Source: Betaproteobacteria bacterium (GTDB lineage: Bacteria; Bacillota; UBA5301; DYFA01). From it: a DNA stretch of 64,000 nucleotides. Below the pieces are notes generated by a model. That model had not been told where the DNA came from, made no database searches, and saw only the letters and a program-made list of their open reading frames with translations. Location: contig JBLNCL010000006.1 in assembly GCA_050260635.1 (NCBI GenBank), positions 68,808 to 132,807 of the forward strand, written 5' to 3'. This document shows, piece after piece, positions 6,234-35,680 of the stretch. Each line of letters starts with the position of its first letter. Within the stretch, counting starts at the first letter, position 1. The position numbers and the translations under genes were made by a program.

Positions 6234-6996
6234 CTCCAGAAATGCTTGGCTGGTCCGCCCGGAGGAACCGGTCGAGAGCCGCCTCCAGCCGTGCCAGGTT
6301 TAGCTGCGTGTTGACGCAGTACCCGTGGGGCCGGTCGTTCACAATGCCGTATACCGGCAACGGGAAGGTTTCCAACAGTCCGCTGGTCAAGTCGCGCTCA
6401 CAGGCCACGGCGATCACCGCCGCCGGACGGAGATCGTGGATGATCTTGCGGGCCATTCCCCCGCCGGTCGCCACCGCCAGGCGGACCCCGCGGTTTTCCG
6501 CCAGCCTCACCACCTCACCGATTTGACATCCCCCGCACCGCCGGCAGTTTCGGGCATCAACCGTGATCCGGTGGGGACAACCCGCCTGCTGCAGACAGTG
6601 GGGAACCAGAACCAGGACCTGCTCCGGACGAAGGACAGACGGCACTGCCAGGTCAGCCAGGGCGTTATTGACCGCCACGAAGGACAGCTGCACCCGCTCC
6701 TTCGGCACGCCCACCAGCGGGCCGAGGCGGAGCGTCACCGGGTACATGAGCTCCAGCATCAGCCGGACGAAGGGGGCCAGAAACACCGTCCGCCCACCCC
6801 AGACGCTGGCGGCGACAGCGATAACCCCCGCGGCGACCACCACCACGACCATGAACCCCAGCCAAGCCCCAGCGATGACAAGGACCTGCCCCCAGGTCCC
6901 GCGGCGTGCCAGCGACCAGATCGCCGCCGCCACAGCGCCGCCGACCAGGGCAACAGCAGTTACCAGCCCCAGGAACACCCTCTTGCGTACCGGCAT
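6205..6996 (-). CDS. DUF116-family membrane protein (Cys-rich CRRCGGC motif)
   Basis: 263 aa. N-terminal TM helices, then CRRCGGCQIGEV...LAVATGGGMARKII. This family commonly sits between fmt and rsmB in Clostridia-type genomes. Confidence 0.6.
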   Translation of the reverse strand: MPVRKRVFLGLVTAVALVGGAVAAAIWSLARRGTWGQVLVIAGAWLGFMVVVVVAAGVIAVAASVWGGRTVFLAPFVRLMLELMYPVTLRLGPLVGVPKERVQLSFVAVNNALADLAVPSVLRPEQVLVLVPHCLQQAGCPHRITVDARNCRRCGGCQIGEVVRLAENRGVRLAVATGGGMARKIIHDLRPAAVIAVACERDLTSGLLETFPLPVYGIVNDRPHGYCVNTQLNLARLEAALDRFLRADQPSISGGGCDVSLRL

Positions 6997-17555: not shown

Positions 17556-18251
17556 TCAGCCGGTCTCCTGAGGGCGTTGGCTCGCTCCAGCGTCTGTCCC
17601 CTTCAGCCGACGTAGCGTCTCCGCCACCCCGGGGTAGCCGGGGTCCAGGCGCAGCGCCAGTGCGAAAGACGTCTTCGCCTCTTCCAGCCGGCCGACCGCC
17701 AGATAAAGCTGACCTACCGCCACCAGGGCTTGGCAATCCTCAGGGTTGTCCGCCAGGAAGCGCCGGTATTCCTCGATCGCCTCCTCGTTCCGACCCAACC
17801 GGGCTAACCCCTCCGCCAGCCCCCGTCGGGCTAAACCCAGCGAAGCGTCCGCTGCCAGCGCCTCCCGGTACAGCCCGAGCGCCTCGTTGAGCCGGCCCCC
17901 GTCGGCCAGAAGCCGCGCCTGGAGGGCCCTGATGACCGCCGGGCCCAGGGCGGCCGGGTCGGGGGGAGCCACGTGTGCGGCCTCGGCGAGGACTGCCGCC
18001 GCCCGCTCGGGCTGCCCCATGGCCTCCCTGAGGAGGCCTTCAAACACCAGCACCTCCACGGTTCCCTCCGCGGCAGACTTTTCCAGCTCATGGAGGGCCA
18101 TCTCCGGCAGACCCATCTGGAGATAGAGCAGACTCCGCTCCAGCCCGGTCCCGCGCTTCGCCGCGACGCCGGGGGATCCTGCCACTACCGGCGCCAACGC
18201 CAGCAGGGCGAGGAGCGCCCCGCCCCACCGGCGGCTGAACTTACACCTCAT
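17556..18251 (-). CDS. Secreted/lipoprotein-like TPR-repeat protein
   Basis: 231 aa. Signal peptide MRCKFSRRWGGALLALLALAPVVAG. Multiple Ala/Leu-rich TPR-like helices. Confidence 0.7.
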   Translation of the reverse strand: MRCKFSRRWGGALLALLALAPVVAGSPGVAAKRGTGLERSLLYLQMGLPEMALHELEKSAAEGTVEVLVFEGLLREAMGQPERAAAVLAEAAHVAPPDPAALGPAVIRALQARLLADGGRLNEALGLYREALAADASLGLARRGLAEGLARLGRNEEAIEEYRRFLADNPEDCQALVAVGQLYLAVGRLEEAKTSFALALRLDPGYPGVAETLRRLKGTDAGASQRPQETG

Positions 18252-18327
18252 TTGCTAACCACCAGCCTCTACTTCGGCGGGACGCCCGCCCCCTCCTCCC
18301 TGGCCCGCCTTCTCCCCAAAGCTGGCA

Positions 18328-18356
18328 TTGTCCCCCCTGTCAGGCGATGGTATACT
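18328..18356 (+). promoter_or_regulatory. Putative sigma-A promoter of rqcH
   Basis: TTGTCC, 17 nt, TATACT. An SD GTGAGGTGG and an ATG at 18377 lie downstream. The listed ORF start at 18347 falls inside the -10 element. Confidence 0.45.
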
Positions 18357-18376
18357 GGAGCGTGAGGTGGCCTGAG

Positions 18377-20200
18377 ATGCCCATGGATGCGGCGGTTTTC
18401 GCCGCCCTCGCCCGGGAACTCGACTGTGAGCTCAGGGAGGCCCGGCTGGAGAAGATCATCCCGCTCAACCCCCAGGAACTCCGCTTTCTCCTCCGCCTCC
18501 CCTCGGGAGGCGGCCGACCGGAGCGCGCACTGATCGTTTCGCTCGACGGTCCGCTGGCCCGCCTCCACCTGGAGGCCCCCGGCCGCAGCAGCGACGAGCC
18601 GTCCGCCGCCTCTCCGTTCGCGCTGCTCCTGCGGCGGCACCTGCCGGGGTGCCGCCTGAGTGGGGTCCACCATCCGGCCTGGGAGCGAATCCTCCACTTC
18701 ACCTTCATTGGCCCCGCCGACGAGTTCCCCCGCCGGCGCCTGACCTTGATTTACGAGCTCTTTGGCGCCAAGGGGAACATTCTGCTGCTCGACGCCCAGA
18801 GAATCCTCCTAGGCAGCCTGCGCCCCCTTTCTGAGGGGGACAACCGGTTGCAGATCGGCGCTCCGTACGCTGCCCCACCTCCCCCGACGGCTACCCCGGG
18901 GGCGCCTCTGGCCTATCTGCAGCAGGCGATTGCCCTTGCCCCTGCCGACGCCCCGCTCCGCTTCGCTTTGGTGCGCAACGTGGGCGGGTTGGGCCCCTGG
19001 GCGGCCGCGGCGCTCATCCGGGCGGCCGGCCTCGACCCGGACGAACCCTGCGGGGCGATGCCGCCGGACGGCGCGGCTCTCCTCTGCGAGCAGCTGTCCG
19101 CCTTCGCTGAGGACGTGGCCGCCGGGCGCTTCTCCCCCGCCCTCTGGCGGCAGGGCGGCGAGCTGCGCGAGTTTTGGGTCTATCCCGCCCCGGTCCCCCC
19201 CGGCTGGACCGTTGAGCCCCAGGCCAGCGCCAACGAGGCGGTGGCGAGGTTCTTCGCCGAGCAGGTCAGCGCAACCCGCCTCGCCCGGGGCCGGCAGACC
19301 CTCCTCCAGCGCCTCGACGCCCAGCTCGCCCGCCTGGAGCGGAAGCTTCGGGCCCAGCAGCAGGATCTCGCCCGAGCCGAGGCCGCCGACGACCTCCGCC
19401 GGTCGGGAGAACTTATCCTGGCCAATCTTCCCCAGCTAAGCCGGGGCATGACCGTCTTCACCGGCGTGTCTTACGCTGATTCCACCCCTCGTACCGTGTC
19501 CCTCGACCCCCGGCTCAGCCCGCCCGAAAATGCGCAGCGCTACTTTGCCCGCTACCGGAAGGCCAAGCGGGGCCAGGAGGAGGCAGCCACCCGGGTGAGG
19601 GCAACGGAGGAGTTGTTCAAGCGGACCCGTCAGGCCCGCTTCGAGGCGCAGGACGCCGAGAGCCTCGCCGAACTCAAGGCGCTCGCCGCGCAGCTCGTGG
19701 AGGAGGGGATCCTGGAGGAGGCCACCCTCCGCCCCCAGCCTGGCCGCAAAGTTGTTCCGCCGGCCACTCCCGGACCAAACAAGCCGAGCCCGCGCCGCTA
19801 CCGTTCGACCGACGGATACGAGATCCTGGCCGGCCGGAACAGCCGCGAGAACGACTGGTTGACCCTCCGCTCGGGCGCTCCCCACGACCTCTGGCTCCAC
19901 GTTAAGGACCTGGCCGGAGCCCACGTCATCCTCCGCCTGCCGGCGGAAGGGCCGATACCTGAGGGGGCGCTGCGAGAAGCGGCCCAGATCGCCGCCTATC
20001 ACAGTGAGGGGCGGCAGAGTAGCCGGGTTCCGGTGGACTACACTCCCCGTCGCCATGTGCGCAAGGCTCCCCGCGGCGGTCCGGGTCAGGTCTTCTACGA
20101 CCATCACCGGACCCTTTATGTTACCCCCGACCCCGCCCTGGTCGCCCGTCTGCGGGTGAACGACGCTCCCGGCGAGCAGCCGGTGGAGGGTCCGCGGTGA
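18377..20200 (+). CDS. rqcH: RqcH/YloA (NFACT-domain, Rqc2 homolog; 'fibronectin-binding protein A' family) ribosome quality-control factor
   Basis: NFACT-N, coiled coil, and an NFACT-R/DUF814 region (GYEILAGRNSRENDWLTLRSGAPHDLWLHVKDLAGAHVILR). Same position as B. subtilis yloA beside yloB. I placed the start at the MPMDAAV Met, after the SD. Confidence 0.85.
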   Translation: MPMDAAVFAALARELDCELREARLEKIIPLNPQELRFLLRLPSGGGRPERALIVSLDGPLARLHLEAPGRSSDEPSAASPFALLLRRHLPGCRLSGVHHPAWERILHFTFIGPADEFPRRRLTLIYELFGAKGNILLLDAQRILLGSLRPLSEGDNRLQIGAPYAAPPPPTATPGAPLAYLQQAIALAPADAPLRFALVRNVGGLGPWAAAALIRAAGLDPDEPCGAMPPDGAALLCEQLSAFAEDVAAGRFSPALWRQGGELREFWVYPAPVPPGWTVEPQASANEAVARFFAEQVSATRLARGRQTLLQRLDAQLARLERKLRAQQQDLARAEAADDLRRSGELILANLPQLSRGMTVFTGVSYADSTPRTVSLDPRLSPPENAQRYFARYRKAKRGQEEAATRVRATEELFKRTRQARFEAQDAESLAELKALAAQLVEEGILEEATLRPQPGRKVVPPATPGPNKPSPRRYRSTDGYEILAGRNSRENDWLTLRSGAPHDLWLHVKDLAGAHVILRLPAEGPIPEGALREAAQIAAYHSEGRQSSRVPVDYTPRRHVRKAPRGGPGQVFYDHHRTLYVTPDPALVARLRVNDAPGEQPVEGPR

Positions 20201-22545
20201 AGCGGCGCATCAACCCTCTGTACGTGGTCCTGGCCACCCTGATCCTGGCGGTGGAAGGCGGTATCTTTCTCTACCTGAAGGCCACCAACTTGACTGAGCG
20301 ACTGACCGGCCCGGGGTTGGCCGGCCAGGTGGCCGCCGTCAGACGGACGGCCGCCTTCAGCCTGCCCGGGCTGGGCGACGTTCGGGTGGAGGCGCAGCCA
20401 GGCGGCTATGCCACCAGGTCGAGAAGAGACGGCCGCTTCGCCCTGAAGCTGCCCCCTGGCGTCTATGAGGTGACCTTCTCCGCCGCCGGCTATCTCCCAC
20501 ACCGCGAGCGGGTGCAGGTCCTCTCCGCCGGGCCGACCTACCTCTGGCCGGCTCTCTTCCCCCGGCCAACTGGTCCGCCGGTGCCGTCCCTCATGCGCAG
20601 CCTGCGCTCGCCGGGCGACGGGCCGGTGGCCTACAACACAGGGATCATTCTCGACGCCTCCGGGTCCCAGAACGTCATCCCGGACGGTCTCCGCTGGGAG
20701 ATAACGGACGAGGCGGGCCACATCCTCACCGATCCCTACACCCAACCGAGCCGCCCCCTCCAGCTCAAACCCTCGCCGATCCCAGGCAGCTCTCCGCTGC
20801 TCGTCACCTTTGTCCCACCAGCCCCGGGGCGCTACAATGTCCGGCTCTACCTGAAGAATGCCTTTTCCAAGGCCCGCGAGGTGTTCGCCGATTTTTCCGT
20901 CGAGGCGGAGAACCGCAGCCCAGAGGCGGTTCCATTGGTGATCGCCGGCCCCAACCCGCCTGGCTATCGCCCCGATGGGAGGTTCAAGGTAGGCTCTGGC
21001 CTCCGCACGGTTCTCGCCGGGGAGACCGTCTACCTTGCCGCCTGGGCCTTCGACAAGAACTACCCCTCGCCGGAGTTGTACCATCCCGCTGGGCGGCAGC
21101 CGGACGCCTACGGGAAGAACTTTCTTCCCCCCTTGAGCCGATACACCTGGAGATGGCGCCTGTACAGGATGGACGGGTCTCGGCGGAGCGACGTGACGGG
21201 GCTTCTCCGGGCAGACGAGCCGGGGCCAGCGGACCGCTCGCCTTACCCCTGGTTCGTGGCCGAACGGCCGGGGCGGTACCTCGCCTCTCTCTGGGCGGAG
21301 GACCACGACCCCCACGGCTCCCGCCTCGGCAGTCCGACCACCCTGGAGATCACCGTCCTGCCGCGGGAGGGAGCGCTGGTCTCCGAGCAGACGTGCTCCC
21401 AGGATGGCTGCCACCCTGCGCAGCGAACGGCAGCCGCCCTCAGACCACACATGACCTGCCAGTCCTGTCATGGTCCAGGCCAGCCCCACCTGGTCGCCCG
21501 GGACCGGGAGAGCAGGACCGCCACGATGCAGGTGTCCTACGAGGCGGCCCAGTGCGGCCGCTGCCACCGGCAGTACGCCGAGTGGGAGAAGTCCCGTCAC
21601 GCCGACGGTTACGCCTTCGGCTACCAGGAGATCGCCAAGCCGCTCCTCTTGAACTGCGCCAAGTGCCACTATCCCCAGGGTTTCGCCGACGCGGCGGCCA
21701 TCGCCCGGAAGAAACGGGTTGACTTCGGCCAAATCGAGTTCAAGAAGGCGGCCTTCCCAGGGGGGCCGCTGGTGTACGACTTCGATAAACTGCCGGAGCG
21801 AGTCGGTCAGGGAGTCAGCTGCCAGGCCTGCCACGACCCTCATCAAATCGGCCCCCAGAACAAGTTGGGCCTGCGCCTCCCCAAGTCCCAGCTCTGCGGC
21901 TCCTGCCACGAGACCAAGTGGCAAAACGTCCTCCTCGAACAGACCGCCGGCCGGGTCGGCTCCGCCTACGAGTATCCCGGCCGCCAATACGCCAGCCAGA
22001 ACCCCCACAACACTGAAGAAAAGTGCCTGCTCTGCCACATGAGCAAGGACGCGCCAGAGCAGGATGAACACGGCGTGCGCAGGCTCGGCGGCCACACCCT
22101 TCGGATGCGCGACGCCGGCCCGGATGGTAAGCTTGGCGGCTTCGGTCCCGCCCCGGACGATCCCAACCGGCAGCGCGAGGCCTACGGGGCAGACGACCTC
22201 CTGAACCTCGCCCCCTGCCGGCGCTGCCACCTCGAGGCGACCACTTTCGACCTCGGAGGACGCCAAAGGGAGATCTACCAACTCTGGCTCGAACTGGGGC
22301 GCCGGCTGAAGGAGTTGAACCACGGCGTCCTCCCCGGTTACCGGCCGGGAGACAAGTGCGCCACCTGCCACCGCGGGGGAACCCTGCCCTTTGACCACGA
22401 TCCCAAGCTGGTCCTGGAGAACGCCTACACCAACTACAAGCTGGTCAAGAACGACCGGAGCTGGGGCATCCACAACTACCGCTATACCAAGCAGCTCCTC
22501 GAAGACTCCCTGCGGTCGCTGGAGGAGTTGACCCCGACCCGGTGA
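20197..22545 (+). CDS. Membrane-anchored multiheme c-type cytochrome. It has 8 CxxCH motifs, an N-terminal TM helix, a carboxypeptidase-regulatory-like domain and Ig-like domains.
   Basis: 782 aa. N-terminal TM VVLATLILAVEGGIFLYL. CarbopepD_reg-like segment (DGRFALKLPPGVYEVTFSAAGYLPHRERVQV). The C-terminal ~350 aa carry CQSCH, CGRCH, CAKCH, CQACH, CGSCH, CLLCH, CRRCH and CATCH, plus a possible variant CSQDGCH. The GTG start overlaps the rqcH TGA (GTGA). Confidence 0.8.
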   Translation: MKRRINPLYVVLATLILAVEGGIFLYLKATNLTERLTGPGLAGQVAAVRRTAAFSLPGLGDVRVEAQPGGYATRSRRDGRFALKLPPGVYEVTFSAAGYLPHRERVQVLSAGPTYLWPALFPRPTGPPVPSLMRSLRSPGDGPVAYNTGIILDASGSQNVIPDGLRWEITDEAGHILTDPYTQPSRPLQLKPSPIPGSSPLLVTFVPPAPGRYNVRLYLKNAFSKAREVFADFSVEAENRSPEAVPLVIAGPNPPGYRPDGRFKVGSGLRTVLAGETVYLAAWAFDKNYPSPELYHPAGRQPDAYGKNFLPPLSRYTWRWRLYRMDGSRRSDVTGLLRADEPGPADRSPYPWFVAERPGRYLASLWAEDHDPHGSRLGSPTTLEITVLPREGALVSEQTCSQDGCHPAQRTAAALRPHMTCQSCHGPGQPHLVARDRESRTATMQVSYEAAQCGRCHRQYAEWEKSRHADGYAFGYQEIAKPLLLNCAKCHYPQGFADAAAIARKKRVDFGQIEFKKAAFPGGPLVYDFDKLPERVGQGVSCQACHDPHQIGPQNKLGLRLPKSQLCGSCHETKWQNVLLEQTAGRVGSAYEYPGRQYASQNPHNTEEKCLLCHMSKDAPEQDEHGVRRLGGHTLRMRDAGPDGKLGGFGPAPDDPNRQREAYGADDLLNLAPCRRCHLEATTFDLGGRQREIYQLWLELGRRLKELNHGVLPGYRPGDKCATCHRGGTLPFDHDPKLVLENAYTNYKLVKNDRSWGIHNYRYTKQLLEDSLRSLEELTPTR

Positions 22546-22823
22546 ATGGAGACGAGAGCTTTGCCAAGACGGAGGCGGCGGCAGTGAGACAGTGGATGTC
22601 CTGGCTTTTCTTCTTTCTTCTACTGTGGTCGGGAGCGTCGGGCGAGGCACTCGCCCAAGCCGGCTGGCGGTTCAAGGATTACCGCATGGACGCAGAACGC
22701 GAGCTTCGCCTCCAAGGCAAAGCAGTCGGCCTGGGCTTCGACGTCTGCGTCCGGCTGGTCAGGACCAGCGCTGGGGACGAATCGGTCGAGTACAGTCTCG
22801 GGACGAGCTTACTGATGTTCTGA
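22542..22823 (+). CDS. Small hypothetical protein with a signal-peptide-like hydrophobic segment. A possible partner of the cytochrome.
   Basis: The GTG start overlaps the cytochrome TGA (GTGA again). Alternative start at Met 22596 (MSWLFFFLLLWSGASGEALAQAG...). GC3 about 75%. The 3' end overlaps the pepT stop convergently by 15 nt. Confidence 0.35.
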   Translation: MNGDESFAKTEAAAVRQWMSWLFFFLLLWSGASGEALAQAGWRFKDYRMDAERELRLQGKAVGLGFDVCVRLVRTSAGDESVEYSLGTSLLMF

Positions 22824-24101
22824 GCAAGAGCACCGCTGCGTGGGCGGACCAGGCTCCTCCGCCCACAGCAGCACAAGCTGGCAGGCGATCTCGGCTGCCT
22901 TCTCCATCCACTGGACAGAGGCCCACTCCCGGCGGGAGTGGACGTTCTCCGAGCCGTTGGAGAGGTTGGGCGTGGGGAGCCCCTTGAACGAGAGGCGGGC
23001 CCCGTCGGTCCCGCCGCGGATCGACCGGCGGACCGGCTCCACCCCGGCCCGGCGGATCGCCTCCTCGGCCAGTTTGACGACTTTGCGGTTCCGGTCGAGG
23101 ACTTCCCTCATGTTATCGTAGCTGTTGGTCTGCTTCACCTCGACGGCGGCGCCCGGGTAGCGCAGGGCGAGCAGGGCGCCCAACTCCCGCAGGGTCCGGT
23201 CCTTCCGCTCGATCCCTTCCCGGGTGAAGTCTCGGGCCAGAACCTTGATCGCCACCCGCTCGACGTTACCGCTGATCTCATCGGGATGGTAGAAGCCCTC
23301 CCGCCCATCGGTCGTCTCCGGACGGGCGGTGGCCGGGAAGGCGCTGACGAATTCCGCCGCCAGGTGGATGGCGTTGATCATCTTGCCCCGGGCGGAGCCG
23401 GTGTGGGCGCTGACGCCGGTGATGGTCACGGTGTAGTTGCGGGCGTAGAAGTTTTCCGCCTCCAGTTCCCCGATCCCGCTCCCGTCCAGGGTGTAGGCGA
23501 CATCGGCGCCGAACCTGGCCACGTCGAAGAGGTCGATCCCTCCGCCGACCTCCTCGTCCGGGGTGAAGGCCACCTTGACCGGGCCGTGCTTCAGTTCAGG
23601 CTCACGGAGAAGGCGGCAGAGGGTCTCCATGATGGCGGCGATGCCGGACTTATCGTCGGCCCCCAGGAGGGTGGTCCCATCGGAGGTGACAAGGTCGTGG
23701 CCGATGGCCTGGAGGAGTGCGGGGAATTCCGCCGGCGTGAGCGTTTCCCCGCTGGGCAGCCGGATCTCGCCCCCCTGGTAGTTCCGGTGGACGAGCGGTT
23801 TGACGTTGGCGCCCGGGACTCCCGGGAAGGTGTCGAGGTGGGCCAACAGGCCGATGGTCGGGGCTGGCCGGCCAAGGTTCCCGGGCAGAGTCGCCGTGAC
23901 GAACCCGTGGTCGTCGAGAGCGGCGTCCCTCAGGCCGAGGACCAGCAGTTCGTCCCGGAGCATCCGGGCCAAGTCCAGCTGTCCAGGAGTGCTGGGGACC
24001 TTCCCCGCCTCCTCCGCCGACGCCGTATCCACCTGGACATAGCGCAGGAACTTGGCCAACAGGCCTTCGTTGAGCAAGCTTTGACGATCCATCAACGACA
24101 C
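22809..24101 (-). CDS. pepT: Peptidase T (tripeptide aminopeptidase, M20B)
   Basis: 430 aa. N-terminus collinear with PepT (…YVQVDTASAEEAGKVPSTPGQLDLARML…GFVTATLPGN…PTIGLLAHLDT…TTLLGADDKSGIAAIME…). Confidence 0.88.
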   Translation of the reverse strand: MSLMDRQSLLNEGLLAKFLRYVQVDTASAEEAGKVPSTPGQLDLARMLRDELLVLGLRDAALDDHGFVTATLPGNLGRPAPTIGLLAHLDTFPGVPGANVKPLVHRNYQGGEIRLPSGETLTPAEFPALLQAIGHDLVTSDGTTLLGADDKSGIAAIMETLCRLLREPELKHGPVKVAFTPDEEVGGGIDLFDVARFGADVAYTLDGSGIGELEAENFYARNYTVTITGVSAHTGSARGKMINAIHLAAEFVSAFPATARPETTDGREGFYHPDEISGNVERVAIKVLARDFTREGIERKDRTLRELGALLALRYPGAAVEVKQTNSYDNMREVLDRNRKVVKLAEEAIRRAGVEPVRRSIRGGTDGARLSFKGLPTPNLSNGSENVHSRREWASVQWMEKAAEIACQLVLLWAEEPGPPTQRCSCSEHQ

Positions 24102-24291: not shown

Positions 24292-24316
24292 CTGCCACCC
24301 TGGCAGCTTTTTCAAT
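24292..24316 (-). terminator. Weak hairpin just downstream of the purD stop (end of the pur array)
   Basis: CTGCCA-CCC-TGGCAG, a 6-bp stem. On the minus strand, A/U-rich GAAUAGUAAU follows. A T5 run sits on the plus side. Non-canonical. Confidence 0.25.
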
Positions 24317-25596
24317 CACGCCGTCTTTTCCGCGATATCGGTTCGCCATGCTCCACCGGGGAACCGGACCGCCGCCACGCCGGCGTATGCCCGCTCCCGG
24401 GCTGCGGCCAGGCTGGCGCCGACACCGGTGACGTTCAGCACCCGGCCGCCGTGCGAGACCACCCGCCCCGCCTCGTCCCGTCTCGTCCCGGCGTGGAAAA
24501 GCAGAACCCCCGGCAGAGCCGCTGCGGAGGCGAGCCCCTCGAGCGGCAGGTTCCGCTCGTACCGGCCCGGGTACCCCCGGGCAGCCATCACCACGGTCAC
24601 GGCAGCGCCGGCGCAGCGCGGCGGGGCCAGGCCAACCAGGCCGCCCGGCTCGGCTGCTCCCCGCAGGTACGGCAGGAGGTCGTCCAGGAGCAAGGGAAGG
24701 ATCACCTGCGTCTCAGGGTCGCCAAAGCGGGCGTTGAACTCGACCACCTTGGGCCCAGAGGCGGTCAGCATCAAACCGGCGTAGAGCACCCCCTGAAAGG
24801 GGCAGCCGGCGCGGGCCAGCGCCCGGATGGCGGGGAGCAGGATCTCCGCCCGGACTCGCTCGGCCACCTCCTCCGTCACTACCGGGGTCGGGGCGAAGGC
24901 CCCCATCCCACCGGTGTTCGGCCCCTGGTCACCGTCGTAAGCCCGCTTGTGGTCCTGCGCTGCCGGCAATACCAGGCAGTTCTCGCCGTCCGTCAGCGCT
25001 AGGACTGAGGCCTCGCGGCCCGCCAAAAACTCCTCCACCACGACCTTCCGCCCGGCCGCCCCAAAGACTCCTTGTTCCAGGGCGGCGCTGACGGCCTCCT
25101 CCGCCTCCGCACAGCTCTCCGCCACCACGACGCCCTTCCCGGCTGCCAGCCCGTCTGCCTTCACCACGATGGGCGGGCGGAGCGAGCGGACATAAGCCCG
25201 GGCGGCACTCGCGTCCGTGAAAACCCGGTAGGGGGCGGTCGGAATCCCCGCCTCCGCCATCAGGTCCTTGGCATACGACTTGCTCCCCTCGATGCGGGCC
25301 GCCTGGGCGCCCGGCCCGACCGCCGCCACCCCGTCTTCTCGCAAGGCGTCAGCCAAGCCGGCCACGAGATAGGCTTCCGGCCCAATCACCACAAGCTCGA
25401 CTCCCTCCCGCCGGACCAGCTCCCGGACGGCCGCCGCCGCCAGCCCCGGCTCGTCGGGGAGCGGACAGTTCCGCCCCACCTCGGCTGTCCCAGCGTTTCC
25501 GGGGGCCACCAGCACTTCAGAAACCAAAGGACTCGCCTTGAGTTTCCAGGCAAGGGCATGTTCCCGGCCCCCGCTTCCCACCACCAGAACCTTCAT
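24316..25596 (-). CDS. purD: Phosphoribosylamine-glycine ligase
   Basis: Conserved start [19 protein letters not shown], with a GGGGAGAAGG SD. The listed ORF (to 25734) has a 46-aa extension that runs into purH. Confidence 0.9.
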
Positions 25597-25621
25597 TGCC
25601 TTCTCCCCGCCCTCATGGCCA

Positions 25622-27172
25622 TCAGTGTCTGAAGTGGCGCAGGCCGGTGAAAACCATGGCGATCCCCGCCGCCTCCGCTGCGGCGATCGAGTCGGCGTCC
25701 CGGAGCGAGCCCCCGGGTTGGATGATGGCCGCAATCCCGGCCGCCGCCGCCGCTTCCACCACGTCGGGCATGGGAAAGAAGGCGTCAGAGGCCAAGACCG
25801 CCCCCCGGGACGCCTCCCCGGCCCGCTGTAAGGCGTAGCGGGTCGGATCGATCCGGTTCACCTGGCCCCCGCCGATCCCCACAGTCCGCCTGCCCCGGGC
25901 GACCACGATGGCGTTCGACTTGACGTGTTTCACCACCTTCCAGGCAAACCGCAGCTCCTCCCATTGCGCCGGCGAAGGCGCACGGCTCGTCACCACCTTG
26001 AGCTCCTCCTCGGGTGGCAGGAGGGCCGTGTCGGCGTCCTGCACCAGGAGCCCCCCGGCTACGCGGCGCAGGTCGAGCCGCTCGGCCTCGCCGCCTACCG
26101 GCACCCGGAGCAACCGCAGGTTTTTCTTGGTTTGCAGGATCTCCAGCGCCCCCGGGGAAAAGTCCGGGGCCAGGACCACCTCGAGAAAGATCCCGGCTAA
26201 CTCGCGGGCAGTCTCCTCGTCCACCTCGCGGTTTAGGCCGACGATCCCCCCGAAAATGGAGACCGGGTCGGCAGCGGCCGCCTGCCGGAAGGCCTCCGCC
26301 AGAGTCTCCGCCTCCGCTACCCCGCAGGGATTGGTGTGCTTCACCGCCACCGCTGCCGGACCCTCGAACTCAGCCACCGCTGCTAGGGCTGCGTCGGCGT
26401 CGTTTAGATTGTTGAAGGACAGCTCCTTACCCCATAGCTGCTCGGCGTGGACCAGGCTTCGCCCGACCGGCCGCTCCTCCCGGTAGAAGGCAGCTCGCTG
26501 ATGGGGGTTTTCGCCATAGCGTAGCGCCTGCTGTCGCGTGAAGTGGAAGAACAGGTGTTCCGGGAACGGCTCCTCCCCGACCAGATAGCGATAGATCTGG
26601 GCGTCATAGCGGGAGGTTGCGGCGAAGGCTTCCGCTGCCAGCCGCTGCCGCAACGCTGGCGTCGTCCCCCCAAGCTCCCGGACCTGAGCCAGGACCTCGC
26701 CGTATTGCTCTGGCCCGGTGACCACCGCCACGCTGTCGTGGTTCTTCGCCGCTGCCCGGACCAGGCTCGGGCCGCCAATATCGATTTGCTCGATCGCTTC
26801 CGCCCGGGTGACGCCCGGCCGGGCGATTGTCGCCGCAAAGGGATACAGGTTCACCGCCACCAGGTCGATGGGTGCGATCCCCGCCTGCTCGAGCTGGGCC
26901 AGGTGGGAAGGAAGGTTCCGGTCGGCCAGGATTCCCGCGTGGATTCTCGGATGGAGCGTCTTGACCCGCCCGTCCAGCATCTCCGGAAACCCCGTCACCT
27001 GCTCGACCGGCGTCACCGGCAGGCCGGCCCGGCGCAGGGCGGCGTAGGTCCCCCCCGTCGAGATCAGCTCTGCCCCGCACTCAGCCAGCCCCCGGGCGAG
27101 CTCTTCAACGCCCTCCTTGTTGTAGACGCTCAACAGCGCCCGGCGCACCGGCCTGACTCCCTGCTCGCTCAT
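25622..27172 (-). CDS. purH: Bifunctional AICAR formyltransferase/IMP cyclohydrolase
   Basis: MGS-like N-domain ([12 protein letters not shown]) and AICARFT domain. Start ATG at 27172, preceded by a GGAGGAGGAG SD. The listed M1 lies inside that SD. Confidence 0.9.
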
Positions 27173-27199
27173 CCTGCGCTCCTCCTCCCCCACCCTCGT

Positions 27200-27820
27200 C
27201 TACTCCAGAATGCGAACTTTCCGCCCCTCCACCTCGATGCGGCCCTCCGCCATCAAGCGGATCGCCTCCGGGTAGAGCCGGTGCTCCTCGACCAGGATCC
27301 GGGCGGAAAGCGACTCCTCTGTGTCATCCGGCAGCACCGGCACAGCCGCCTGGAGGATGATCGGCCCGTGGTCGACCTCCTCGTCCACCAGATGGACCGT
27401 GCAGCCGCTTACCCTCACCCCGTACGCCAAAGCCTGCCGCTGGGCGTGAAGCCCCGGGAAACTCGGCAGAAGCGATGGGTGGATGTTGAGCACCCGCCCG
27501 GGAAAGGCGGAGAGGAAGTCATGGCCCAGGAGCCGCATGAAGCCGGCCAGCGCCACCAAGTCCACCTCGGCCCTCTTGAGTCGGGCCACCAGCGCCCGCT
27601 CGAACTCCGCCGCGGAGGCAAAGTCCGCCCGCCGGACTACGGCCGCGACCACCCCTCGCTGCGCCGCCTTGGCCAAGGCCGGCGCCTTCGGGTTGTCGGA
27701 AACCACCAAGACCGGTTCAGCGCCGAGTCGGCTGAGCCGGTGAGCGTCGAGGATAGCCTCCATATTGCTGCCTCGCCCGGAGACGAGAATGCCCAGTCTC
27801 GGCGGCTTCCTCTGACTCAC
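27200..27820 (-). CDS. purN: Phosphoribosylglycinamide formyltransferase
   Basis: RLGILVSGRGSNMEAIL…. GTG start at 27820 overlaps the purM TGA (GTGA), with a GGAG SD 5 nt upstream. Confidence 0.88.
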   Translation of the reverse strand: MSQRKPPRLGILVSGRGSNMEAILDAHRLSRLGAEPVLVVSDNPKAPALAKAAQRGVVAAVVRRADFASAAEFERALVARLKRAEVDLVALAGFMRLLGHDFLSAFPGRVLNIHPSLLPSFPGLHAQRQALAYGVRVSGCTVHLVDEEVDHGPIILQAAVPVLPDDTEESLSARILVEEHRLYPEAIRLMAEGRIEVEGRKVRILE

Positions 27821-28851
27821 CGCAACTCCACTCCCCCTTCGCCGGCCGCCACCCGGCCGATGACCCACGCCTGCTCTCCAACCTCCGCCAGGGCGGCCAC
27901 CGCCTCGCGGGCCTCTTCCGCCGGCACCGCCACCACTAGGCCGATTCCCATGTTGAAGGTGCTGAACATTTCCCGTTCCTGGATCTCGCCCAGCCGCTGG
28001 AGCCAGGCAAAAACCGCTGGGACGGGCCAGCTCCCTCGCTCAATGACGGCCGTGGCGCCCGGAGGGAGACCCCGCGGGATGTTCTCGAAAAACCCGCCGC
28101 CCGTGATGTGGGCCACCCCGCGGACATTCACCGTGCGGCGCAGGGAGAGCAGGCTTCTGGCATAGATGCGGGTTGGGACGAGCAGCTCCTCGACGAGGGG
28201 CCGCCCGAGCTCCGGAATCACGGCGTCCAGTTTGTACCGGCCAACCTCGAAGACGAGCTTCCGGACCAGGGAAAAGCCGTTGGAGTGGAGCCCCGCCGAG
28301 GCCACCCCGACCAGGGCGTCACCCGCCTGAACCCGGGATCCGTCGATTACCTCGTCCCGCTCGACCACCCCTACGGCAAACCCGGCCAAGTCGTACTCGC
28401 CCGGTTCATACAACCCAGGCATTTCCGCCGTCTCTCCCCCGACCAGGGCGCACCCCGCCTGGCGGCAGCCCTCGGCCACGCCCTCCACCAGCGAGGCGAC
28501 AAGGGCCGGGTCGAGGCTCCCGACGGCCACATAATCCAGGAAGAAGAGCGGTTCTGCCCCCAGGGCAGCGATGTCGTTGACGCACATGGCCACGCAGTCG
28601 ATCCCGACCGTGTTATGGCGCCCGGCCCGCTGGGCGACGAGCACCTTGGTCCCGACTCCGTCGGCCCCTGACACCAGCACCGGCTGGCGATACCCGTCCG
28701 GCAGGGCGACCAGCGACCCGAAGGAGCCAATCCCAGCCAAGACCTCCGGCCGGGTGGCAGAGGACGCCAGCGCCTTGATTCGCCGCACCGCCTCGTACCC
28801 TGCGGCCACGTCTACCCCCGCCTGGCGATAGGTGAAGCCCCTCTCCGTCAC
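27817..28851 (-). CDS. purM: Phosphoribosylformylglycinamidine cyclo-ligase (AIR synthetase)
   Basis: 344 aa. N-terminus YRQAGVDVAAGYEAV. Confidence 0.92.
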   Translation of the reverse strand: MTERGFTYRQAGVDVAAGYEAVRRIKALASSATRPEVLAGIGSFGSLVALPDGYRQPVLVSGADGVGTKVLVAQRAGRHNTVGIDCVAMCVNDIAALGAEPLFFLDYVAVGSLDPALVASLVEGVAEGCRQAGCALVGGETAEMPGLYEPGEYDLAGFAVGVVERDEVIDGSRVQAGDALVGVASAGLHSNGFSLVRKLVFEVGRYKLDAVIPELGRPLVEELLVPTRIYARSLLSLRRTVNVRGVAHITGGGFFENIPRGLPPGATAVIERGSWPVPAVFAWLQRLGEIQEREMFSTFNMGIGLVVAVPAEEAREAVAALAEVGEQAWVIGRVAAGEGGVELR

Positions 28852-30284
28852 CGCCCGACCGCCTTTCGTTCCAGTTCGAGAGCGCCCGTCTCCTCGAAGG
28901 CAAACTTCCCGGCCGGGCGCCCGGGGATGGGTACTGGGTAGGCGCCGTCGAAGCAGGCGAGGCAGAGCGATCCCGGCTGACGCCCGACCGCCCGGGTCAA
29001 TCCAGCGAGAGACAGGTAGTGAAGGGAATCCGCCCCGATGACCTCCCTGATTTCCGCCTCGGTTCGCCCGGCAGCAATGAGTTCCCCCTTCTCGGAGGTG
29101 TCGATCCCATAGTAGCAGGGGTGGCGGTAGGGCGGTGAGGCGATGCCCAGATGGACCTCCCGGGCCCCCCCCTCCCGGAGGAGGCGCACCGTTCGCGCCG
29201 AGGTCGTGCCCCGGACGACCGAATCGTCGATCAACACCACCCGCTTCCCCACAATCACGTCCCGCACCGGGTTGAGCTTAATCTGGACTCCCAGGTCCCG
29301 GACGGCCTGGGTCGGTTGGATGAAGGTCCGCCCGACGTAGCGGTTCTTCATCAGCCCGATGTCAAAGGGAAGCCCCTTCGCCTCGGCGAAACCCATCGCC
29401 GCCGAGGTCCCGGAGTCGGGGGCGGCAATCACCACCTCCGCCTCGACTTCCCACTCCGCCGCCAGCTGCCGTCCGATGTCCTTCCGGACCTGGTGGACGT
29501 TGCGCCCCGCCAGGACGGTGTCGGGCCGGGCGAAGTAGATGTACTCAAAGGCGCAAAGGCGTTCGCCCGCGGATGGCTGGACCTGGCGGAAGCGCGGCCC
29601 GTCCCGGTCGATCACCACCATCTCGCCCGGCGCCAGCTCCCGCACAGACTCGGCCCCCAAATTTGCCAAGGCGCAACTCTCCGAGGCCAGAACATACCCC
29701 TCCCCCAGGCGGCCCAGGGCCAGCGGGCGAAAACCGTGGGGATCGCGCAGGCCGAAGAGTTGGTCCTGTCCCATCGCCACCAAAGCGTAAGACCCGGCGA
29801 GGCGGCGGACCGCTCCGGCCAGCGCCCCCTCCAGATCCTCCCGGGCGAAACGGGCCACCAGGTTCAGGATGACCTCGGTGTCGGTGCTCGTCTGGAAGAC
29901 CGAACCCGCCTCCATCAGCTCCTGCCGAAGGACGTCGGCGTTGACCAGGTTGCCGTTGTGGGCCACCGCCACCGTCCCCTTGGAGCAGCGAGCCAAGAGG
30001 GGCTGCGCGTTGATCACCGAGCTCCGGCCGGTAGTCGAGTAACGGACGTGGCCGATCGCCAAGTAACCCGGGAGGCCCGCCAGAACCTCCTCGGAGAAGA
30101 CTTCCGCCACCAAGCCGGTCTCCTTGTACAACCGGACCGCCGTTCCGTCGGAGACCGCCAGCCCGGCGCTCTCCTGTCCCCGGTGCTGCAGGGCATACAG
30201 GCCGAGGAAGGCCAAATTGGCCACGTCCTGCCCGGGGAGATAGATGCCGAAGACCCCGCATGCCTCCCGGAGATGCTCACTCAC
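28848..30284 (-). CDS. purF: Amidophosphoribosyltransferase
   Basis: 478 aa. N-terminal propeptide then CGVFGIY (catalytic Cys). PRTase domain. C-terminal Cys cluster for Fe-S. Confidence 0.92.
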
Positions 30285-32523
30285 GGTCGCGTCCCTCCAG
30301 GCGACGGGGGATGGCCTCCCGCCAGATTCGTTCGAGTTCCTTCACCGGCTCATTGACCAGCGGCTGTTCCTCCCGGCCGGCCGGCATGACCCGGAGCGTC
30401 CCGCCCCCGGTGGCCCCGAGAAGCGTCCAGGGAACGCCGTGCTTGTCGGCGAGGGCCGCCACCGCGGGAGCGTCTTCCCGTTCGACGGCCAGGAGGACCC
30501 GGCCCTGCGACTCCCCGAAAAGGTAGGCATCGAGCCGAAGGGGCGTCTCGACCATGATCCCGCAGCCGATGCCTGTCCCGAAGCACATCTCCGCCAGGGC
30601 GACCAACAGCCCGCCCTCGCTCACGTCATGGGCCGCCTTCACCAGCCCCTGCCCGATGGCGCTCGCCACCATCTTAAGCAAGACCTTCTCCCGCTCGAGG
30701 TCAAGCTGAGGGGCCGGCCCAGCCACGATCCGCCGTCGGAGCCAGAGGTATTCGCTGCCACCCAGTTCCTCCCTGGTCTCGCCGAGCAGAAGGACGGCCT
30801 GGCCGGTCCCGGTGAAGGTGGAGGGACAACGCTTGGACACGTCGGGCAAAAGCCCCACCATGCCGATGATCGGCGTAGGGTGGATGGCCTCCCCGTTCGT
30901 CTCGTTATACAGGCTGGCGTTGCCCCCGGTCACGGACAAACCCAGCGCCCGGCAGGCCGAGGCGATCCCTTTGACCGCCTCCTTGATCTGCCAGTAGGTC
31001 TCCGGCCGCTCGGGGTTCCCGAAGTTCAGTCCGTCGGTCACCCCCAGCGGTCTCGCCCCGCTGACCACCAGATTCCGGGCCGCCTCGCAGACCGCTGCGG
31101 CGCCGCCCGTCCAGGGATCCAGGTAGCCGTACCGTCCGTTGCCGTCGATGGTCAAGGCGAGCCCCTTTTGCGTCCCTTTGATCTGCAGGATCGCCGCGTC
31201 GCTCCCGGGCCCGACCACCGTGTTGGTCTGGACCTGGTAGTCGTACTGGCTGTAGACCCACTCCTTGCTGGCCATGGTCGGTGAGTCGAGGAGAGCCTTG
31301 AGCATCTCCCCGTAGTCGTCCGGTTCAGGCAGGCTCGCCAGGTCGAACCGGCGCCGCTCCTCCAAGTCCTCGGGAGGCCGCGCCTCCGGCTGGTAGACCG
31401 GGGCGCCCTCGGTCGAGAGCGACCTCGCCGGAACCTCCGCCACCACCCGGCCATTCTCCAGGACCCTCAGCATCCCGTCGTCGGTCACCCGCCCTACCGT
31501 CACCGCCTGAAGACCCCACCGCTTAAAGATCTCCCGGACCGCCTCTTCTTTCCCCGCCTGCGGCACCACCAGCATCCTCTCTTGCGACTCGGAGAGCATC
31601 ATCTCGTAGCTGTTCATGCCCTCCTCCCGGCGAGGCACCAGCGCCAGGTCCAGTTCGATCCCGCTCCCCGCCCTGGCGGCCATCTCGGACGCGGAGCTGG
31701 TCAAACCCGCCGCCCCCATGTCCTGGATGCCGACGACCAGCCCGCTCCGGATCGCCTCCAGGCAGGCCTCAATCAGCAGCTTTTCCGTGAAGGGGTCGCC
31801 CACCTGGACGTTGGGGCGCTTCTCCTCGTTCTCCTCCGACAGCTCGGCCGAGGCGAAGGAGGCGCCGTGGATCCCGTCCCGGCCGGTGGTCGAGCCGACG
31901 ACCATCACCGGGTTGCCGACCCCCTTGGCCGCTGCTGTAGCGATGTGGGCTGTTTCGACCAACCCCACCGCCATCACGTTGACCAGGCAGTTCCCGCTGT
32001 AGCTGGGGTCGAAGTAGACCTCCCCGCCCACCGTGGGGACACCGACGCAGTTCCCATACCCGGCGATCCCGCTCACCACGCCGGTGAAGAGGTACCGCTG
32101 GCGGGGTTCAGACAGCTCCCCGAAGCGGAGCGAGTCGAGGACGGCGACGGGCCGGGCGCCCATGGTGAAGATGTCCCGCAGTATCCCGCCAACCCCGGTG
32201 GCCGCCCCCTGGTACGGCTCAACCGCCGAGGGGTGATTGTGGGACTCGACCTTGAAGGCCACCCCCAGCCCGTCCCCGAGGTCCAGGATGCCGGCGTTCT
32301 CCCCCGGCCCCTGCAGGACGTGCTCCCCCTCCGTAGGAAAGAGCCTGAAGAGCGGGCGGGTGTGCTTGTAGGCGCAGTGCTCCGACCAGAGCACGGCGTA
32401 CATCCCGAGTTCGGTGTAGTTGGGGTCGCGGCCGAGGATCTCCACGATCCGCTCGTACTCCTTGTCCCTCAGCCCCATCCGGCGCCAGGCCCTTTGTTCC
32501 CTGATTTCCGCCGGGCTCAGCAT
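30277..32523 (-). CDS. purL: Phosphoribosylformylglycinamidine synthase subunit PurL
   Basis: 748 aa. Collinear with PurL (small-form FGAM synthase II). Confidence 0.92.
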
Positions 32524-33215
32524 GCTTTCACCCCCTCGCCGCGCAAGATCGCTCCGAGGATGCGGCGGCCGTCTTCCCCGCCCAACAGCGCCGCCACGGC
32601 CCGTTCCGGGTGGGGCATCATCCCGACCACGTTCCCCGCCCGGTTGCAGACCCCGGCGACGTTGTTCACCGAGCCGTTCGGGTTGGCTTCAGGCGTCACC
32701 TGCCCATCAGGAGTGGCGTAGCGAAAGACCACCTGACTCCGCTGCTCCAACTCGGCCAGCTCCTCCGGGGCAGCGTAATAGTTGCCCTCCCCGTGGGCGA
32801 TGGGGAGCCGCAAGACCTCGCCAAAGGTCAAGCCCTTCGTCCAGGCCGTCGAGGCGTTCTCCACCCGCAGGTGGACTGGCTTGCAGAGGAACTTGAGGCC
32901 GGCGTTGCGCAGGAGCGCCCCCGGTAGCAGCCCCGCCTCAGTAAGAATCTGAAACCCATTGCAGATGCCCAACACCGGTCGGCCGTCTTCGGCGAACCGG
33001 GCCACCTCGGCCATGATCGGGCTGAACCGGGCGATCGCTCCGCAGCGCAGGTAGTCGCCGTAGGAGAAGCCGCCCGGCAGAATGACGGCGTCGAAGCCGG
33101 AGAGGGAGCTTGCCTCGTGCCAGACGAACTCGGCCCGGCCGCCCACCCGCTCGACCGCCCACCTGACGTCGGCGTCGCAGTTGGAGCCGGGAAAGACGAC
33201 GACCCCGACCCTCAT
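32517..33215 (-). CDS. purQ: Phosphoribosylformylglycinamidine synthase glutaminase subunit PurQ
   Basis: [14 protein letters not shown]… Start ATG at 33215 follows a GGAGGAGG SD. TGATG overlap with the purS stop. Confidence 0.9.
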
Positions 33216-33466
33216 CAGCACGCCTCCTCCAGGCTGAACCGGTACTCCTCGATGACCGGATTGGCCAGAAGCCGCCGGCAGGCCTCTTCCACCAGCCCCC
33301 GGGCTGTCTCCCGGCTGTTTGCCTCGAAGCGGAGTTCGATCAGTTTGCCCACCCGGACCTCCTGCAGCCCGGCAAAGCCAAGGGTAGCCAGACCACCCTG
33401 GACCGCCTTCCCCTGCGGATCCAGGACCCCCGCCTTCAGTACGACCTCAACCTTCGCCTTCCACAA
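33215..33466 (-). CDS. purS: PurS (FGAM synthase small subunit)
   Basis: 83 aa ([23 protein letters not shown]…). Confidence 0.85.
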
Positions 33467-33535
33467 GACTGCTCATCCTCCCCGCCGTCGCTTTCCAGGC
33501 CAGCCGCCCTTGGCCACCGGCCGCTCGCTCCGCCC

Positions 33536-34243
33536 TCACCCGGCGATCCGCCGCCAAACCTCCTGGTATGCCTCCGCAACCCCGCCCATGTCCCGCCGGA
33601 ACCGGTCCTTGTCGAGCTTCTCGCCGGTCTCGGTGTCCCAGAAGCGGCAGGTATCGGGACTGATCTCGTCGCCGAGCAGGATCTGCCCATCCCGGGTCCG
33701 CCCGAACTCCAGCTTGAAGTCGATCAGCTCCAGCCGCCGGGGCTTCAGGTAGGCCGCCAGGAGGTCGTTCACCTTAAGGCTGGTCTCGGCCAGTTGCGCT
33801 ACCTCCGCCGGCGTCGCCAGGTCGAGCGCCTGGATGTGGTACTCGTTCACCAGCGGATCGCCCAGGTCGTCCCGCTTGTAGTAGAACTCCACCACCGTCC
33901 GGGCCAAGCGCGTTCCTTCCGCCAGGCCGAGCCTCTTCGCTAGACTGCCGGCCGCCACGTTCCGCACTACGACCTCCAGCGGAACGATCGCCAGTCGCCG
34001 GGCCACCATGTCCCGCTCGCCTGGCAAAGCAACGAAGTGGTTAGGGACGCCCTGCTCTGCCAGGTAGCGGAAGAGGGCCGCTGAGATGCGGGCATTCAGA
34101 ATCCCCTTGTCGCTGATGAACCCCTTCTTCTGGCCGTTGAAAGCCGTGGCGTCGTCCTTGAAGTGGATGAGCAGAAGGTTCTGGTCGTCCGTCGCGTAGA
34201 CGATCTTGGCCTTCCCCTCGTACAGGCGCTCACCCTTGGTCAC
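33536..34243 (-). CDS. purC: Phosphoribosylaminoimidazole-succinocarboxamide synthase
   Basis: …[14 protein letters not shown]…. GTG start at 34243 after a GGGGAGGAG SD. The listed ORF start at 34306 overlaps purB. Confidence 0.88.
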
Positions 34244-34263
34244 CAAAGCGCTCTCCTCCCCGC

Positions 34264-35667: not shown

Positions 35668-35680
35668 CGCACCCCCTCGA

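Follow-up and report, generated by a model that had tools for sequence, protein, structure and literature searches.

Four-base overlaps joining rqcH, a nine-haem cytochrome gene and a 93-codon reading frame as likely scars of gene gain, deletion and decay

In a 64,000-nucleotide stretch of contig JBLNCL010000006.1 (assembly GCA_050260635.1, positions 68,808 to 132,807 of the forward strand; hereafter the window), three reading frames stand in series on the plus strand: rqcH, which encodes an NFACT-family ribosome-rescue factor, a gene for a multihaem c-type cytochrome, and a 93-codon open reading frame (ORF) whose last 15 nt are shared with the convergent gene pepT. At each of the two junctions between them, the stop codon of one frame and the GTG start codon of the next share the four bases GTGA. 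Does this arrangement couple ribosome quality control to an envelope redox protein, or do the overlaps have another origin? The original prediction, made from the letters of the window, called such a coupling functionally odd and proposed that the cytochrome gene and the small ORF may have been inserted as a pair into the rqcH transcription unit. Having compared this locus with those of its relatives, we consider it likely that the rqcH-pepT interval is prone to rearrangement, a hot spot within a clade of high-GC, Bacillota-like bacteria, and that the overlaps are scars of gene gain, deletion and decay, so that the arrangement would be an accident and not a functional module.

Both overlaps are present in the sequence at the positions given in Table 1. 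The first joins two genes that are both real, and the cytochrome start at GTG 20197 is supported by comparison, as this codon matches the position of the ATG of the cytochrome gene in the closest relative (locus L001) and the N-termini of 15 homologues, and the L001 ATG is preceded by the same CCGGTGGAGG block as the window GTG. The second overlap is equally present in the letters of the window, but it is probably an artefact of calling the longest ORF, the frame that it opens being a gene relic. Nor are such junctions unusual here. When the genes of the window were mapped crudely by longest ORF, 12 of the 48 same-strand junctions (25%) were 4-nt NTGA overlaps, seven of them GTGA and five ATGA; four-base overlaps are the commonest junction type in the window, and the GTGA overlaps are unremarkable and not above chance. 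The Met-Lys start of the cytochrome (NTG AAG) itself generates a TGA in the +1 frame, regardless of the sequence upstream, and the ATG AAG of the L001 cytochrome gene holds the same TGA. A rough estimate from base composition gives a 93-codon open frame in DNA of ~65% guanine plus cytosine (GC) a chance of ~10%.

Among the loci compared, the order rqcH, cytochrome, small ORF occurs in the window alone, and the conservation of gene order that would mark an operon was not found. The closest relative, represented by loci L001 and L002 (cytochrome 77% identical to that of the window, rqcH 72%, pepT 85%), has flanks that match those of the window, with genes for a P-type ATPase and a TPR protein on the minus strand, then rqcH on the plus strand, and on the far side of the interval pepT, purD and purH on the minus strand. 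In both loci, however, a 361-aa rsgA that scores above the TIGR00157 cut-off lies between rqcH and the cytochrome gene, with spacers of 248 and 91 bp. An equally close metagenome-assembled genome (MAG; locus L009) has no cytochrome gene between rqcH and pepT, and its interval holds a GNAT gene, a PlsY-like gene, PAS genes, a C-terminal remnant of rsgA and a small gene. Locus L029, an outgroup of the same clade (ATPase 71% identical to that of the window, rqcH 62%, pepT 80%), likewise has no cytochrome gene at this position; its order is ATPase(-), TPR protein(-), rqcH(+), P0035(+), rsgA(-), GNAT(-), pepT(-), purD(-), and the TAG stop of rqcH is followed directly, with zero gap, by the GTG start of P0035, an 880-aa gene. 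Homologues of the cytochrome found elsewhere are 73% (L021/L022 and L032), 67% (L023), 56% (L003/L004) and 46% (L005-L007) identical to it, and their genes stand in six unrelated contexts, mostly as the last or only gene before a gene on the opposite strand. Judged from these loci, the adjacency of rqcH and the cytochrome gene is lineage-specific and the overlap between them is unique to the window.

These comparisons bear out one part of the original prediction and revise others. The cytochrome gene does look like a newcomer at rqcH, given its absence from the L009 and L029 loci and the unrelated contexts of its homologues. The proposed insertion of a pair holds for the cytochrome gene, which would have arrived in one lineage, but not for the small ORF, which appears to be the remnant of a resident gene and so did not arrive with it. 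The first overlap was not, in all likelihood, made by the insertion itself; it most likely came from a later deletion of ~1.4 kb that removed the rsgA still present in L001 and L002. The gene next to rqcH is rsgA in L001 and L002, P0035 in L029 and a convergent gene in more distant genomes. The coupling that had seemed functionally odd finds no comparative support as a functional unit. As a separate observation, the rsgA remnant of L009 (3142-3528), which reads EEPGCAVRQALEDGTLDPARYESYLKLQ and is ~90% identical to residues 298-326 of L001 RsgA, runs on in the same frame into a hydrophobic C-terminus of unrelated sequence, making it another decaying gene in the rqcH-pepT interval.

The sequence around the first overlap suggests how it arose. 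The RqcH proteins of relatives end in ...ARLRAR, ...ARLRADGGHPQ or ...AKLRLDIDAEGAV, each followed by a stop codon that lies 3-10 residues past the shared ...LR, and the window protein ends in the non-conserved tail listed in Table 1. Positions 20147-20196 of the window, which include this tail, align with positions 6944-7003 of L001, where the sequence is the non-coding leader of the cytochrome gene; the alignment covers 50 nt, is gapped and ~65% identical, and includes the CCGGTGGAGG block. A 10-nt motif opens both segments, as CGTCTGCGGG in the window and as CGTCTGTCGG in the L001 leader (6944-6953), and the same motif stands at the end of L001 rqcH as CGCCTGCGGG (5558-5567), 1386 bp upstream of the leader copy. 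The homology of tail and leader, together with the 10-nt direct repeats in L001, suggests a deletion of ~1.4 kb in the window lineage. Overlap 1 may thus have come from a deletion between direct repeats in an L001-like ancestor, which would leave precisely the arrangement found in the window, a model for which these data are suggestive.

The 93-codon ORF has no Pfam or NCBIfam match, and searches of 5.8 billion clusters, 1.84 billion representatives and the JGI metagenomes returned no homologue beyond its own species. Its sole homologue, P0030, is 89% identical and lies on a 1.6-kb Logan contig (L024) of the same species, the pepT of which differs from that of the window at 3 of 1251 nt. In L001, only 62 bp separate the cytochrome gene from pepT, and they hold no trace of the ORF. 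An exhaustive HMMER search gave one meaningful distant match, to the C-terminus of P0034 (65% identity over 37 residues), whose family consists of ~880-residue proteins with signal peptides (P0035-P0042). Three pieces of the ORF match P0035, the gene that follows rqcH in L029 (Table 1). The N-terminal match is weak and consists of an ungapped local alignment of residues 19-43 (ending AQAGW-R) with P0035 residues 5-29 (ending ARPAW-Q), the score of which was reached by 6 of 2000 shuffles. When the family profile was compared with the six-frame translation of the window, the frame of the ORF alone was matched, at profile positions 840-881 of 882. All three pieces are collinear and in frame, with implied internal deletions of ~250 and ~550 codons. 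Given these collinear in-frame matches and the position of P0035 directly after rqcH in L029, the small ORF is the remnant of a gene that once followed rqcH, and its homology places that gene, of ~880 codons and encoding a secreted protein, in the P0035 family.

Several features indicate that the ancestral start of this relic is probably GTG 22584 and not the GTG of the overlap at 22542. The former lies 39 nt downstream of GTGA, and the 14 codons between the two have no counterpart in the P0035 family. The ribosome-binding geometry at GTG 22584 (Table 1) resembles that of P0035 in L029, where GAGGGGG is followed after 8 nt by GTG, and no Shine-Dalgarno sequence lies 5-10 nt before GTG 22542, where a GAGGAG stands 15 nt upstream. 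In L024, GTA stands in place of GTG 22584 and CTG in place of ATG 22596, so that the ancestral start has been lost and GTGA alone remains. The GC content at third codon positions (GC3) of the ORF is 0.75, compared with 0.82-0.88 in the neighbouring genes, and its differences between window and L024 comprise 11 non-synonymous and 6 synonymous changes, a ratio close to neutral; the lowered GC3 and the near-neutral ratio fit decay. Neither homologues beyond the species nor purifying selection, as expected of a protein-coding gene, were found. Gene remnants that are annotated as small hypothetical proteins resemble this ORF in being orphans with lowered GC3 and near-neutral substitutions that match pieces of a larger family. 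The window relic differs from them in being unusually tidy, with three in-frame collinear pieces and a Shine-Dalgarno sequence, start codon and signal peptide retained in the window strain.

Some candidates concerning the small ORF were discarded. P0031-P0033 had come up as relatives in the search of representatives, but these are tandem-repeat proteins whose scores are sums of weak matches, and three apparent relatives from JGI metagenomes are low-complexity, eukaryote-like DNA. RNA structure or an intrinsic terminator at 22530-22830 was rejected on either strand, given fold z-scores of -1.1 and -0.6 and no T-run terminator; the change at 22652 in L024 disrupts the single clean hairpin of this segment.

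The differences between the window and L024 are concentrated at the second junction. Seventeen of the 21 fall inside 22546-22685 (12% of positions), and the surrounding 1503 nt differ at 4 (0.27%). This hypervariable patch begins at the first base past the cytochrome stop and covers the leader and the signal-peptide part of the relic. Import by recombination and local hypermutation are both possible sources, as judged with one comparator strain. A diversity-generating retroelement or a repeat copy was rejected as the source, since the substitutions show no specificity for adenine and neither the window nor the loci compared contain a second copy. The patch preserves no RNA fold between the window and L024.

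Taken together, these observations would fit the following history. The ancestral state would have been an ~880-residue secreted-protein gene directly after rqcH, as preserved in L029. In the common lineage of the window and L001, the nine-haem cytochrome would have settled in the interval as a single gene, together with rsgA. A deletion of ~1.4 kb between copies of the 10-nt motif would then have removed, in the window lineage, everything from the stop codon of rqcH through the spacer and rsgA to the first part of the cytochrome leader, and the rqcH frame would since run for 14 codons through the old leader and end at the TGA made by the GTG-AAG of the cytochrome gene, giving overlap 1. The resident ~880-residue gene would have been cut to a 93-codon relic by two in-frame internal deletions. 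Its frame would have stayed open by chance up to the GTG on the cytochrome stop, giving overlap 2 and a start codon that gene callers would pick.

If so, the deletion would also have changed how the cytochrome gene is expressed. The consensus scan, which covers sigma-70-type promoter sites only and is weak evidence, found no promoter- or terminator-like site at either gene junction. Within rqcH (18377-20196) it found no promoter-like site; the other plus-strand site, at 20810-20838, lies inside the cytochrome gene. The weak terminator-like sites that the scan returned for the plus strand are at 20876, within the cytochrome gene, and past pepT. The window cytochrome gene retains ~50 nt of its former upstream region, which is now within the rqcH coding sequence. 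Given the loss of this upstream region and the lack of a promoter-like site in rqcH, read-through is the simplest inference, with the conserved promoter of rqcH probably driving transcription of the cytochrome gene. Translation of that gene probably depends on its own Shine-Dalgarno sequence within the rqcH tail, and termination-reinitiation coupling at this junction is possible. In these respects the locus resembles coupled ATGA/GTGA overlap pairs, which are co-directional, with a start codon that overlaps the upstream stop, a Shine-Dalgarno sequence in the upstream coding sequence and no terminator- or promoter-like site at the junction. Classical pairs of this type, however, encode partners whose order is kept across species, whereas the order at this locus is restricted to a single lineage and appears deletion-derived, and the second pair involves a relic.

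One alternative to an accidental arrangement is a genuine operon, in which RqcH would work jointly with the cytochrome and a small secreted protein and the GTGA overlaps would enforce coupled, stoichiometric translation; in one version, ribosome rescue would be tuned to the making of a multihaem protein that is hard to secrete. Three co-directional ORFs with tight overlaps behind a single conserved promoter are what such an operon would look like, and in L029 rqcH likewise abuts a secreted-protein gene without a gap. We nevertheless regard it as very improbable, because rqcH and the cytochrome gene are adjacent only in the window, rsgA intervening in L001 and L002 and the cytochrome gene being absent at L009 and L029, and because the cytochrome gene is found in six unrelated contexts, the third ORF is a relic, and rqcH comes last in its unit in genomes that are more distantly related. 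Even less credible, and in our judgement extremely unlikely, is that the junctions are chimeric artefacts of assembly. Although the DNA comes from a MAG whose taxonomic label is implausible, and the assembly of the related MAG DYFA01 breaks inside rqcH, the junction of cytochrome gene, relic and pepT recurs in the independent Logan assembly L024, the flanking synteny agrees with L001, L002 and L029, homology links the rqcH tail with the cytochrome leader of L001, and the region is uniform in composition. A recent horizontal insertion marked by composition was also rejected, as GC runs from 0.65 to 0.73 with no step across 18-23 kb. It is unlikely, too, that the cytochrome gene has independent transcription from a promoter of its own within the 3' part of rqcH, so that the genes overlap physically without co-regulation. 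Elsewhere this is mostly a stand-alone gene that must have its own promoter, and a scan for sigma-70-type sites would miss others; against this stand the empty scan of rqcH and the shortening of the L001-homologous upstream region to ~50 nt.

The 93-codon ORF might also be a functional small secreted protein, produced by reductive evolution of the 880-aa gene and translated from GTGA by termination-reinitiation. Its frame has remained open through two large deletions and in both strains, GTGA is the only start codon common to both, the N-terminus is signal-peptide-like with an ALA-QA site and h-region substitutions that remain hydrophobic, and its pattern of GC at the three codon positions is the best among the six frames. 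We find this quite unlikely, however, because the ORF has no homologue beyond the species and is absent from the 77%-identical relative, non-synonymous changes outnumber synonymous ones by 11 to 6 in the variable half with a GC3 under that of the neighbours, the spacing before GTGA is wrong for a Shine-Dalgarno sequence, and the pieces kept total 51 residues and come from two widely separated parts of a large protein, for which the original fold is unlikely. A bolder and improbable extension would have genes settle repeatedly on the 3' side of rqcH, as on a landing pad that gives constitutive read-through expression to envelope or secreted genes, the 880-aa gene in L029 and the cytochrome gene in the window, with the 93-residue product a new small secreted protein, GTGA-coupled, whose 140-nt leader and signal region is under diversifying change. 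Some points do weigh against scars of deletion and decay as the whole explanation. The deletion model takes L001 as its one stand-in for the ancestor, and with a gapped leader alignment of 50 nt at ~65% identity it is suggestive; so too is the order of events, as rsgA lies on opposite strands in L001 and L029. A cytochrome promoter off the sigma-70 consensus may lie inside the 3' end of rqcH. The relic may be expressed, its frame being open through two deletions and the window keeping a GTG with its Shine-Dalgarno sequence and a plausible signal peptide; at the four h-region positions that differ from L024, the residues all remain hydrophobic, and GTGA as the sole start in L024 would favour the start site of the original prediction if the ORF is translated.

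Table 1. Positions in the window of the features discussed, with the basis for each
Feature	Position	Strand	Basis
Promoter of rqcH, sigma-A-type (predicted): -35 TTGTCC 18328-18333, 17-nt spacer, TG-extended -10 TGgTATACT 18348-18356	18328..18356	+	consensus scan, conservation
Shine-Dalgarno GAGGTG of rqcH, 7 nt before ATG 18377	18364..18369	+	sequence; invariant in five aligned
rqcH, NFACT-family ribosome-rescue factor, 607 aa	18377..20200	+	Pfam, structure alignment, NCBI product
Non-conserved 14-codon RqcH tail VNDAPGEQPVEGPR	20156..20197	+	follows 10-nt motif CGTCTGCGGG (20147-20156)
Shine-Dalgarno GGTGGAGGG of cytochrome gene, inside rqcH tail, 7 nt before GTG 20197	20182..20190	+	sequence; homologous block before L001 ATG
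GTGA overlap 1: cytochrome GTG 20197-20199, rqcH stop TGA 20198-20200	20197..20200	+	sequence
Nine-haem membrane-anchored c-type cytochrome (predicted), 782 aa	20197..22545	+	Pfam, homologue alignment
GTGA overlap 2: cytochrome stop TGA 22543-22545, 93-codon ORF GTG 22542-22544	22542..22545	+	sequence; also in strain L024
93-codon ORF, NCBI hypothetical protein MGE5552695.1	22542..22823	+	homology to P0035 family
Hypervariable patch, 17 substitutions in 140 nt	22546..22685		window compared with L024 130-269
Probable ancestral start of relic: GGAGG 22571-22575, 8 nt, GTG 22584-22586	22571..22586	+	sequence
Signal-peptide-like segment of relic, residues 15-42 (...ALAQAGW)	22584..22667	+	weak match to P0035 signal peptide
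Relic RFKDYRMDAER (residues 43-53) = P0035 281-291 RFKDYRMDGER	22668..22700	+	blastp, tblastn, motif listing
Relic residues 54-93 = P0035 841-880, 62.5% identity; both end LLxF then stop	22701..22823	+	sequence searches, family profile
pepT (peptidase T), exact 427-aa product annotated	22809..24092	-	NCBIfam PRK05469 2e-155, TIGR01882

The promoter that the original prediction placed upstream of rqcH (TTGTCC-17-TATACT) is indeed present and well kept. The site has 9 of 12 consensus matches plus the TG extension, and sites of this quality number 2 in 7 kb, compared with 0.2 expected. We aligned the intergenic region between the TPR protein gene and rqcH from the window, L001, L002, L008 and L029 and found both hexamers, the extended -10 box, the Shine-Dalgarno sequence and the start codon invariant in all five, with variation confined to the spacer and flanks. 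This conservation gives good comparative support for a functional promoter, and the site looks real. The start of rqcH is ATG 18377, and its 607-aa product is identical to NCBI MGE5552693.1; an alternative start at ATG 18347 was set aside, as both the NCBI product and the alignment of relatives favour ATG 18377.

RqcH of the window matches the Pfam domains NFACT_N (PF05833, 3.8e-75, residues 4-452) and NFACT-R_1 (PF05670, 1.4e-14, residues 474-567), and its residues 10-600 align with residues 10-575 of Bacillus subtilis RqcH (structure 7as8, E 1.2e-57), 7aqc and 7ope being likewise matched. By its domains it is thus a full-length NFACT protein, collinear with B. subtilis RqcH (YloA) throughout. 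The two loci also share a divergent P-type ATPase neighbour of rqcH, conserved in distant relatives, which we call yloB-like after the gene order of B. subtilis. The window protein differs from B. subtilis RqcH in its lineage-specific 14-residue tail, apparently derived from non-coding DNA, and in the Asp-Arg pair of the NFACT-N tRNA-binding motif, D97/R98 in B. subtilis numbering. In the alignment, the window residues aweRil stand opposite gldRim, so that the Arg is retained and Glu replaces Asp; this Glu-Arg, at residues ~92-98 (window 18650-18670), is also present in L001 RqcH.

The second gene is, to judge from its motifs, a membrane-anchored multihaem c-type cytochrome. Its Pfam matches (Cytochrome_C7, 5.4e-14, and Paired_CXXCH_1) fall in a haem domain that follows an N-terminal transmembrane anchor, a CarboxypepD_reg immunoglobulin-like domain and a weak PKD-like match. 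The haem domain spans residues 400-725 (nt 21394-22371) and holds one CX4CH motif (C400/C405/H406) and eight CXXCH motifs beginning at C421, C453, C487, C542, C567, C610, C674 and C721, and all nine Cys/Cys/His triplets are invariant in 15 homologues. The N-terminus, MKRRINPLYVVLATLILAVEGGIFLYL, has a basic n-region followed by a hydrophobic span and is aligned in all homologues; it is therefore a predicted export signal, which would be needed as haem attachment occurs outside the cytoplasm.

The family of this cytochrome is small, with 26 proteins in the 5.8 billion clusters, all from metagenomes or MAGs and with inconsistent taxonomic labels, and a look-up of the exact window product returned no record. 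Its best match among solved structures is OcwA (6i5b, E 7.9e-9), with local matches over stretches of 60 and 41 residues. OcwA (TherJR_2595) of Thermincola potens is a nine-haem cell-surface terminal reductase (PMC6703420). Both are nine-haem c-type cytochromes from Bacillota-type organisms, and the matches span several haem motifs and the C-terminal helix region. The similarity is local, however, and the 782-aa window protein differs in its membrane anchor, its additional CarboxypepD_reg and PKD-like domains and its first motif, CX4CH. By these comparisons it is a new member of a small uncharacterised family, distantly related to OcwA, from uncultured Bacillota-like bacteria.

Other observations were made on cytochrome genes in the loci compared. 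A second multihaem cytochrome of 325 aa, with Cytochrom_C552/NrfA-like Pfam matches, is encoded in L021 (3643-4620) and L022 (185-1162), 2.4 kb upstream of the 73%-identical homologue; its 25% identity over 343 residues to the C-terminal half of the window cytochrome is weak. The gene call for the cytochrome homologue P0004 in L032 (4577-4606) makes it overlap an unrelated ParA/CbiA-like gene by ATGA; GTG 4604, with GAAGGGGG upstream, looks a better start, which would make this another probable overlap artefact of longest-ORF calling. In L003 (2151-9316), L030 (3372-13131) and L031 (7001-15806), genes of the ~880-aa family and the cytochrome lie near an operon for a sigma-E-like factor, anti-sigma factor, MucB(RseB) and DegP. 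The order in those distant lineages is 880-aa gene(+), 750-aa gene(-), GT4(-), sigma factor, anti-sigma factor, MucB and DegP, followed in L003 by the cytochrome gene. This neighbourhood points to an envelope-stress context typical of diderm bacteria; it is absent from the window, L001, L009 and L029.

Beyond pepT, the minus strand of the window carries a string of purine-biosynthesis genes (24316-35688), of which purD and purH were read directly and which presumably continues with purN, purM and purF, by comparison with L001. The string is kept in L001, L009 and L029, so that conserved housekeeping genes flank the variable rqcH-pepT interval on either side. An Rfam search of 18100-23000 found no family even at E<=1, and the sole Rfam match of the window is a tRNA at 3049-3122. 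The source MAG, whose contig here is 227,904 bp long, is labelled Betaproteobacteria bacterium at NCBI, and close homologues are labelled Chitinophagales, Aneurinibacillus, Bacillota and Firmicutes. Its gene content, in which a divergent yloB-type ATPase gene stands beside rqcH, and its GC of ~68% agree better with a high-GC lineage of Bacillota, possibly Limnochordia, which are diderm with ~71% GC (PMC11456536).

Nothing at this locus departs from known kinds of genome evolution, and it offers an unusually clear reconstruction of how a deletion between short repeats can fuse a reading frame to the leader of its neighbour. Such a fusion can create an overlap and make the neighbour dependent on a foreign promoter, and a gene of 880 residues can be whittled down to 93 codons that are annotated as a hypothetical protein. 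In high-GC genomes, it is easy to take tight NTGA junctions and small ORFs with signal peptides for operon logic, and caution is due, as comparative genomics here points to these junctions being scars of deletion and gene decay. Independently of how the junctions arose, the cytochrome family may be of interest for extracellular electron transfer.

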